From positions 4,693-68,692 of the forward strand of contig CAYHBW010000001.1 in the NCBI GenBank assembly GCA_964355085.1: DNA of 64,000 bases, read 5' to 3'. Below are positions 5,291-5,880 of this stretch, one piece after another; within the stretch, counting starts at the first letter, position 1, and every line of letters starts with the position of its first letter. Position numbers and translations under genes: made by a program. The notes beneath the pieces were generated by a model. It ran no database searches and had not been told where the DNA came from. It saw nothing but the letters and a program-made list of their open reading frames with translations. The stretch comes from an uncultured Candidatus Saccharibacteria bacterium (GTDB lineage: Bacteria > Patescibacteriota > Minisyncoccia > UBA6257 > 02-FULL-45-10c).

Positions 5291-5842
5291 CTATAAACTT
5301 TCTATTTTCCAGATATCGGAATACTTATTAAATCTCATTCTAATTAGTACTGATAAAATTCCGTCCTCATACATCCCAAAAGAAAAATCATTTTCGTTAA
5401 TAGAATTTCCTAATTGAACTGCATTAGAACTTATGTCCCCTGCTACCTGACCCATCAAATTCTGATTTTTCAAATTCAATAATCTATTAACCCACCTCTC
5501 CCTGCTGAAATTTTCTTCTTCTTTAAGCAAAAAATACTTGCTCGCCAAATCCACATCGCCGGCCTTGAGCGCCTCGACGAATAAATCCAGGGTCTCCTGC
5601 GGAGTTTTACCGCCATAAGTGTCTTCAGTCATGGCTTTTATATAGGCGGATTCGGCTTTTTCCAGCGCCGCAGTCTGCTCTTCCGCAAAACGCCTGGCCT
5701 TACCGATCTCGCTGAAATACGTATCCCAAATATAAAAACCACCGACAGAGGTGATCATTATCACCAGAAAAGCTCCGGCAAATCTCACGAAATCTCCGCG
5801 CTCATCATCCGGACTTTTATTTTCGTTTTGCTTGCAAAACAT
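5291..5842 (-). CDS. hypothetical N-terminally membrane-anchored protein (operon partner of the giant LTD protein)
   Basis: The ORF track starts at TTG 5866, but an in-frame ATG at 5842 (MFCKQNENK...) lies 9 nt downstream of a perfect -10 box, so I prefer 5842. One TM helix (FAGAFLVIMITSVGGFYIW) is followed by a soluble domain. The gene sits 17 nt upstream of the giant gene. Confidence 0.55.
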   Translation of the reverse strand: MFCKQNENKSPDDERGDFVRFAGAFLVIMITSVGGFYIWDTYFSEIGKARRFAEEQTAALEKAESAYIKAMTEDTYGGKTPQETLDLFVEALKAGDVDLASKYFLLKEEENFSRERWVNRLLNLKNQNLMGQVAGDISSNAVQLGNSINENDFSFGMYEDGILSVLIRMRFNKYSDIWKIESL

Positions 5843-5851
5843 ATCCGGATT

Positions 5852-5880
5852 ATTATATTCCGACAAATTATAATTGTCAA
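5852..5880 (-). promoter_or_regulatory. sigma70-type consensus promoter TTGACA-N17-TATAAT, giving a leaderless or near-leaderless transcript
   Basis: The reverse complement of 5852-5880 reads TTGACA attataatttgtcggaa TATAAT. The -10 box ends 9 nt before ATG 5842. Confidence 0.5.

Follow-up and report, generated by a model that had tools for sequence, protein, structure and literature searches.

A conserved sigma-70-type promoter motif and a probable near-leaderless start of a lamin-tail domain operon in the candidate phyla radiation

The cI transcript that is made from PRM of phage lambda in Escherichia coli is the classic leaderless mRNA. Frequent leaderless transcription has also been described for the genomes placed in "group C" by GeneMarkS-2, which belong to Actinobacteria and Deinococcus-Thermus and include Mycobacterium tuberculosis and Deinococcus deserti (PMC6028130). 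In Parcubacteria, an anti-Shine-Dalgarno (anti-SD) motif is detectable in only 48% of 16S rRNAs (Tsurumaki et al. 2022, PMC9297842). Sigma-70 promoter organization is reported to be broadly conserved across bacteria, including one species of the candidate phyla radiation (CPR) for which transcription start sites (TSSs) have been mapped (PMC12641261). The motif considered here lies in a 64-kb stretch of contig CAYHBW010000001.1 (assembly GCA_964355085.1, deposited as an uncultured Candidatus Saccharibacteria bacterium), hereafter the window, which is taken here to come from an uncultivated groundwater Parcubacterium. On its minus strand, a TTGACA-N17-TATAAT sequence ends 9 nt before ATG 5842, the first codon of a two-gene operon that encodes a small membrane protein and a giant protein with lamin-tail domains (LTD).

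Taken together, the evidence makes it probable that the motif is a functional, conserved housekeeping (sigma-70-type) promoter with a leaderless or near-leaderless transcript, that translation starts at ATG 5842, and that the operon is more likely controlled than constitutive. In the proposed mechanism, RNA polymerase would bind at the TTGACA-N17-TATAAT of the two-gene operon and begin transcription, either somewhere from G5846 to A5844 or at A5842, 6 to 10 nt past the -10 box. This would leave the mRNA with 0 to 4 nt ahead of AUG 5842, and it would be translated as a leaderless or near-leaderless message. The second gene would be translated off the same transcript without a Shine-Dalgarno (SD) sequence, as would be normal for an SD-poor lineage, and expression would probably be high while the promoter is free.

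Promoter motif and its conservation

Direct reading of the sequences gave the motif and its conservation, the start codon, and the structure of the operon (Table 1). Positions 5880 to 5852 contain a -35 hexamer, a -10 hexamer, and a spacer within the 17 +/- 1 nt of sigma-70-type promoters. In a consensus promoter scan the site matched at 12/12 positions, and the runner-up sites in positions 1 to 12000 matched at 10/12. When one mismatch or fewer was allowed on both strands of the window, this site was the sole match, with 0.34 matches expected from shuffled sequences. The initial annotation of this DNA, which had described perfect hexamers, a 17-nt spacer, and 9 nt to ATG 5842, was exact, and no other 12/12 site occurs in the window. 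Under a first-order Markov model, 0.009 exact sites with an N17 spacer were expected per window, 0.002 in its 2 kb of intergenic DNA, and 5e-5 with the -10 box ending 5 to 10 nt before one of the ~20 transcription-unit heads. Intergenic DNA of the window is 34% GC, and TATAAT by itself occurs 67 times in the window. Other transcription-unit heads within the window also have recognizable sigma-70-like boxes.

The site was compared with its counterparts in four further lineages (L087, L090, L084, and L088), whose small proteins are 64 to 72% identical to that of the window. All five promoter architectures directly precede the codons ATG-TTT-TGY. In an alignment anchored on the -35 box, 10/12 hexamer positions were invariant, compared to 0/17 spacer positions (Fisher test, p = 3e-6), and the mean pairwise identity of the hexamers was 0.89, compared to 0.34 for the spacer. 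The invariant core consisted of TTGAC (-35) and TA.AAT (-10), and the spacer was always 17 nt long. Conservation in relatives, proposed with the initial annotation as a way to check it, was thus found for the hexamers, for the 17-nt spacing, and for a gap of 8 to 9 nt between the -10 end and ATG (9 nt in the window, 8 to 9 nt in the four relatives). The next gene upstream varies: it is PaaX-like in the window, a thioredoxin reductase (TrxR) gene in L087 and L088, and NMT1 together with a PAS histidine kinase in L084. The promoter is thus linked to the operon and not to the neighbor. Hexamers and spacing that are kept around a scrambled intervening sequence form the pattern expected from selection on RNA polymerase binding, and, judged from these alignments, the pattern is unlike the outcome of coding sequence or of plain shared ancestry.

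More distant members of the family (45 to 57% identity) have TTGACA-N16/17-TAnnnT 11 to 17 nt before the start, followed by a short U-rich leader, GGCATTATTTTTT-ATG. This leader was common to L004, L005, L006, L008, and L091 (a clade at 45 to 58% identity), where it follows TTGACA-N16-TAnnAT, and it may act as an SD-independent, U-rich initiation region. Gaps of 6 to 9 nt were found again in still more distant members (L037, L048, L079, and L069). In L093, the public call for P0007 starts at ATG 803, abutting a TTGACA, and is probably too long (positions 803 to 850); ATG 848 is suggested as the true start because of the family alignment and of the TTGACA-N17-TAAGCT-N13-ATG found there. A metagenome scan for additional close relatives returned no locus beyond those already recovered.

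Two further promoter-like elements were observed near the site. A second TATAAT at 5872-5867 lies inside the spacer, immediately after the -35 box, and was rejected as an independent promoter, having no -35 box at 16 to 18 nt. A degenerate stretch 5' of the -35 box, at 5884-5911 on the minus strand, reads TTGCTT-N17-GATAAA, its -10 box lacking the final T. Counterparts read TTGCCA-N17-GATAAT in L087 (at about 5933-5961) and TTGCCA-N17-TATATT in L084, so that in the window, L087, and L084 a degenerate second element lies 40 to 67 nt upstream of the main one.

Table 1. Features around the promoter, given in window coordinates, and promoter architecture in the five lineages
Feature	Position	Strand	Description
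-35 hexamer	5875..5880	minus	TTGACA; 6/6 consensus match
Spacer	5858..5874	minus	attataatttgtcggaa; 17 nt; holds TTG 5866-5864, the second TATAAT, and most of the palindrome
-10 hexamer	5852..5857	minus	TATAAT; 6/6 match, including A2 and T6
Discriminator and predicted TSS region	5843..5851	minus	aatccggat; 9 nt; placed by sequence and by the rules of PMC12641261 for TSSs
Start codon of gene 1 (183 aa)	5840..5842	minus	ATG; from homologue N termini, public gene calls, and the in-frame TAA of L090
Gene 1, small protein	5291..5842	minus	183 aa; N-terminal membrane helix and ectodomain
Gene 2, giant protein	531..5273	minus	1580 aa; signal peptide and three lamin-tail domains (LTD, E = 3.5e-28)
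PaaX-like gene	5981..6544	minus	187 aa; winged helix-turn-helix (wHTH) and Cas2-like PaaX_M (Pfam PaaX_M E = 5.5e-19)
Inverted repeat	5862..5878		GACAA-N7-TTGTC (N7 = ttataat); overlaps the -35 box and spacer; candidate operator
RNA hairpin	5883..5931	minus	CCCCCC...GGGGG core; ends 2 nt before the -35 box
Promoter, window			TTGACA-N17-TATAAT-N9-ATG
Promoter, L087			TTGACA-N17-TATAAT-N9-ATG
Promoter, L090			TTGACA-N17-TATAAT-N8-ATG
Promoter, L084			TTGACT-N17-TAAAAT-N8-ATG
Promoter, L088			TTGACT-N17-TACAAT-N8-ATG

Start codon, transcription start, and alternative readings

The closest homologues of the small protein start with MFCTQNENK or MFCTQDENK (MFCxQxENK), in register with ATG 5842. Within codons 2 to 19, pairwise differences at the first, second, and third codon positions numbered 40, 37, and 66 of 180; in the remainder of the gene they numbered 48, 30, and 81 of 210, and the excess at third positions was alike in the two parts. 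The start codon was ATG in 5/5 lineages, which fits the leaderless reading because leaderless mRNAs require ATG. The in-frame TTG 5866-5864, located 8 codons before ATG 5842 and within the promoter spacer, was rejected as a start: the extension is not conserved, and L090 has an in-frame stop at that place. The extension peptides (MSEYNNPD, MLEYNNQH, MKKFNIKSFS, and MRRTDIQSSR) have in common only what the -10 box dictates, unlike the residues after ATG, which are near-identical among the lineages. In L090, the TAA within the TATAAT of the -10 box is an in-frame stop, and therefore no N-terminal extension is possible there. ATG 5842 is the start codon on this comparative evidence. The initial annotation was right that TTG 5866 is wrong as a start, and homologues do begin at the ATG; it had called the TTG the annotated start, when it was merely that of the longest open reading frame, and the public calls for near-identical contigs, at 183 aa, already correspond to ATG 5842.

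The annotated length of the family in near relatives is inconsistent (183, 191, 192, or 194 aa), and the spacer ATG was picked by gene callers in L087 (192 aa) and L088 (194 aa). An 8-nt gap combined with a perfect TATAAT puts TAA in frame with ATG, and it is this stop that L090 carries (62-67). The -10 boxes of L084 (TAAAAT, 5987-5992) and L088 (TACAAT, 2146-2151) deviate at exactly that base, and the upstream frame stays open.

Where transcription starts, how strong the promoter is, how ribosomes load, and how the operon is regulated are predictions from sequence. TSSs are centered on about the 7th to 8th base after the -10 box, with a preference for a pyrimidine-purine-pyrimidine triplet (PMC12641261). 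In the window, positions 6, 7, and 8 after the -10 box are G5846, G5845, and A5844, and the A of the ATG (5842) is position 10. The same rules pick a purine 2 nt before ATG in the relatives (c-A-t in L087 and L090, c-G-t in L088, and a-G-t in L084). Across the five lineages, T at -1 was invariant and the base at -2 was always a purine. The most likely transcript is predicted to be 5'-(G)(G)AU-AUG, with a 2-to-4-nt stub, a class that is usually counted as leaderless (<=5 nt). A strict 5'-AUG transcript is possible but less likely, because, with a gap of 9 nt, initiation at the A of the ATG would have to occur at position 10, on the margin of the usual range. A start within 2 nt of the ATG, as first proposed, comes close to this prediction; the rules give 0 to 4 nt, with the 2-to-4-nt stub appearing likeliest. 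A potential stem-loop at the mRNA 5' end (UUUUG-N4-CAAAA, codons 2 to 6) was rejected, folding no better than shuffled sequences in 5/5 lineages.

Several points weigh against the proposed mechanism. The TSS is extrapolated from E. coli-type rules, and -10-to-TSS distances are unusually variable in the sole CPR species with TSS maps (PMC12641261). At a gap of 9 nt, the A of the ATG is a marginal TSS, which makes a leader of 2 to 4 nt likelier than a strictly leaderless transcript. The leaderless signal across the genomes, described below, is modest, and A/T-richness alone yields about 1.5-fold enrichment. In 4/5 lineages, the spacer holds a start codon that is in frame with the ATG and is not separated from it by a stop. 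The TrxR gene of L088 has its stop codon within the -35 box, 4 nt ahead of the spacer ATG, and read-through transcripts with longer leaders may coexist.

The last two of these points also favor the rival that survives best, in which the promoter is real but the operon is expressed also or mainly from longer transcripts, made by read-through from upstream genes or from a weaker promoter-like element upstream, and the spacer start (TTG 5866; ATG in L087, L084, and L088) is used, giving a product 8 to 10 residues longer and two isoforms. It is further favored by the choice of the spacer start by gene callers in L087 and L088, by -10 boxes in L084 and L088 that deviate precisely where the in-frame TAA would arise, and by a second 10/12 promoter-like site 49 to 67 nt upstream in L087 and L084. 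Against it, the extension is precluded in L090, and the extension peptides are unrelated beyond the constraint of the -10 box, whereas the residues after ATG are near-identical. In addition, a strong hairpin and a separate PaaX-like gene stand between the upstream operon and the promoter of the window, where the upstream element has GATAAA and lacks the critical final T. Longer transcripts as a substantial source of the protein are considered improbable, if the least so of the alternatives.

It is considerably less probable that the hexamers are kept for a role other than RNA polymerase binding, such as a transcription-factor site, with the true promoter elsewhere and an ordinary leader. In its favor, the window has a palindrome that overlaps the motif, and several relatives have palindromes immediately 5' of the -35 box; the conserved part, however, is exactly two sigma-70 hexamers at 17 nt, and the palindrome of the window is not conserved. 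Distant members of the family, too, have TTGACA-N16/17-TAnnnT directly before their starts, and sigma-70 organization is, as noted above, reported to be conserved in bacteria that include a CPR species (PMC12641261).

Still harder to sustain is transcription as proposed here combined with translation from GTG 5788, after a leader of ~55 nt with an SD. GGAG-N5-GTG is among the very few SD-like contexts in the window and sits just before the membrane helix, and many distant homologues have only ~8 residues before that helix. This start was rejected: the codon is a non-start codon (GTA, GTC, TCC, or GCC) in the four relatives, codons 2 to 19 evolve as coding sequence and encode a conserved peptide, and the genome does not use SDs. 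A chance match in A/T-rich intergenic DNA, for which base composition and the 67 copies of TATAAT could be cited, has next to no probability given the Markov expectations, and it is refuted by the conservation of the site in four more lineages despite diverged flanks and spacer. The preferred reading is that of a sigma-70-type promoter that serves ATG 5842 directly.

Operon genes and upstream neighborhood

The small protein had no Pfam match. For its ectodomain a confident structure model was obtained, with only weak matches to NTF2/SnoaL-like folds. Homologues numbered 243, and all named ones were from Parcubacteria (Harrisonbacteria, Yanofskybacteria, Paceibacteria, and others); near-identical contigs originate from Hainich groundwater assemblies (ENA ERZ1292636, ERZ1292616, and ERZ1292621). 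Gene 2 begins 17 nt past gene 1, with no terminator between them, and the pair of small gene and LTD giant was present in 73/76 related loci with enough downstream sequence and is therefore an old two-gene unit. The N-terminal region of the giant protein is weakly similar to Zn-phospholipase C (PDB 8cqm_A, E = 0.0026). The best-conserved part of the giant protein is its N-terminal ~345 aa. The giant LTD protein is predicted to be a secreted surface protein and the small protein to be membrane anchored.

Upstream of the operon lies a PaaX-like gene, itself preceded by thioredoxin-reductase-like, glutaredoxin, and DsbA-like genes. In 23 distinct loci, the small gene has a PaaX-like homologue ~100 to 800 nt upstream (within ~1 kb), which is on the same strand in 14 and divergent in 9; elsewhere in the flanks (~11 kb per locus) there were only 2 PaaX-like matches. 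Loci with a PaaX-like neighbor include L005, L008, L026, L015, L093, L091, and L022. This placement is the signature of a dedicated local regulator, and the protein is a candidate for that role, with its regulation of the operon put forward as a hypothesis. That many lineages encode a PaaX-like DNA-binding protein beside the operon makes control more likely than constitutive expression. The suggestion in the initial annotation that expression is perhaps constitutive is disfavored by the PaaX-like neighbor in the 23 loci, by the palindrome in the spacer, and by the hairpin that abuts the -35 box. The PaaX-like gene has a box of its own, TTGTTT-N17-TATAAA, 26 nt before its ATG. Between the TrxR-like and PaaX-like genes, a 19-bp perfect hairpin followed by a T-run (6597-6638, minus strand) is a strong candidate for an intrinsic terminator.

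The inverted repeat that overlaps the -35 box and spacer may be an operator. The window has no second exact copy of it, but 1.59 sites would be expected with <=1 mismatch, and the repeat is not kept in the other four lineages. The idea that GACAA-N7-TTGTC is a significant repeated motif was rejected, the sequence being present in a single copy in the window and absent upstream of the PaaX-like gene. The 105-nt intergenic region folded at -31.8 kcal/mol (z = -4.17), and the hairpin at 5883-5931 is likely a terminator or insulator after the PaaX-like gene. A weaker second hairpin (5960-5978, minus strand) also lies between the PaaX-like stop codon and the promoter. Perfect palindromes were observed at the same place in L087, L090, L091, L006, and L008, with cores of CCATGG, CCCATATGGG, or CCCAATTGGG and with differing arms. 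A common CCATGG-centered operator upstream of the -35 box was rejected: the arms vary, the hairpin of the window is different, and CCATGG was near only 8/89 loci. No operator common to the lineages was identified among the compared promoter regions.

Shine-Dalgarno use in the group and comparison with known systems

No GGAGG-like motif, and hence no canonical SD, was found 4 to 12 nt before ATG 5842 or TTG 5866. The missing SD had been noted at the outset as a feature of this operon, and none indeed precedes ATG 5842; it is nothing special to the operon, since almost all gene starts in the window lack an SD and have A/T-rich upstream regions. SD absence is a genome-wide and published trait of Parcubacteria and is not diagnostic for the LTD operon. 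In a background survey of 87 related Parcubacteria loci (880 kb), SD-like motifs were found at 34/266 transcription-unit heads, compared to 18/266 in a shifted control, and at 15/153 operon-internal genes, compared to 20/153 in the control. From these mRNA sequences alone, membership of the lineage in the subgroup that lacks the anti-SD is inferred. The window contains no 16S rRNA and no tRNA genes. A scan of the whole 64-kb window against Rfam found no family at the gathering score and no known RNA element near the promoter. GC skew is negative throughout the window, and most genes are on the minus strand.

In the same 87 loci, -10-like boxes were counted at 266 unrelated transcription-unit heads, with the small-gene family itself left out. 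Boxes matching the consensus at >=5/6 positions, with A2 and T6, and ending 5 to 10 nt before the start of the head numbered 49, compared to 16.8 expected from the background at 20 to 109 nt, with modes at 6 and 8 nt. Among the 20 permutations of A3T3, TATAAT ranked first with 2.72-fold enrichment, the others ranging from 0.89 to 2.33. Six unrelated genes had promoters of >=10/12 at exactly 8 nt. As far as box placement can indicate, roughly a tenth of the heads in these Parcubacteria appear to give transcripts with no leader or almost none, a wider habit of which the conserved LTD operon is a particularly clean example. Further candidates for leaderless or short-leader transcripts in the window were TATAAT-N6-ATG at 56720 (minus strand, gene 56025-56720), TTTAAT-N6-ATG at 34188 (minus strand), TATATT-N5-ATG at 34420 (plus strand), and TTGCGG-N16-TATAAT 16 nt before ATG 8608 (minus strand).

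A broader proposition can be advanced tentatively, as a possibility that falls short of being likely: that in SD-poor Parcubacteria at least a tenth of the units are leaderless or have 2-to-3-nt leaders made from sigma-70 promoters that abut the start, with the LTD operon as the cleanest model locus and short PaaX-like proteins as its dedicated regulator. If true, this would give a first concrete view, in CPR bacteria without an anti-SD, of start-codon selection and of the control of a major surface-protein operon. No specific account of leaderless transcription in Parcubacteria or CPR emerged from literature searches, which supports novelty only weakly.

The finding has value for annotation and will not surprise a specialist. 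It settles where translation of a widely conserved and inconsistently called Parcubacteria gene begins, adds one of few well-supported promoters in an uncultivated CPR lineage, and makes standard sigma-70 grammar usable for annotating these genomes. The locus also provides a defined test case for SD-less translation start in Parcubacteria, by leaderless loading or by unstructured A/U-rich leaders, and the motif may serve as a ready-made strong promoter candidate for the expression of CPR genes in E. coli.

The arrangement is already known in other bacteria, and it involves no new mechanism. As at lambda PRM, a sigma-70 promoter would yield a transcript whose 5' end is the AUG or adjoins it and whose translation involves no SD, with the TSS at this locus being a prediction. 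PRM is weak, is activator dependent, and has its TSS exactly at the A of AUG, whereas the promoter here is a perfect consensus. As at the paa operon of E. coli, which is controlled by a PaaX-type repressor, a PaaX_M gene adjoins the operon, and in the window a palindrome overlaps the core promoter. Unlike E. coli PaaX, the CPR protein is short (187 aa) and shares the Cas2-like middle domain only, and it is considered a candidate regulator.

As in the Parcubacteria subgroup that lacks the anti-SD, SD-like motifs are near background in the window and the 87 loci; the study of that subgroup covers the rRNA side only, without promoters, leaders, or start-codon selection (PMC9297842). As in group C, the operon's first gene lacks a ribosome-binding site and has a Pribnow box ~10 nt from its ATG (PMC6028130). 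Unlike this locus, group C promoters usually have only a -10 box (TANNNT), placed 6 to 7 nt before the start with a weak -35, and internal genes carry SDs. Here both hexamers are perfect, the gap is 8 to 9 nt, for which a stub of 2 to 4 nt is likely, and SDs are barely used even at internal genes.

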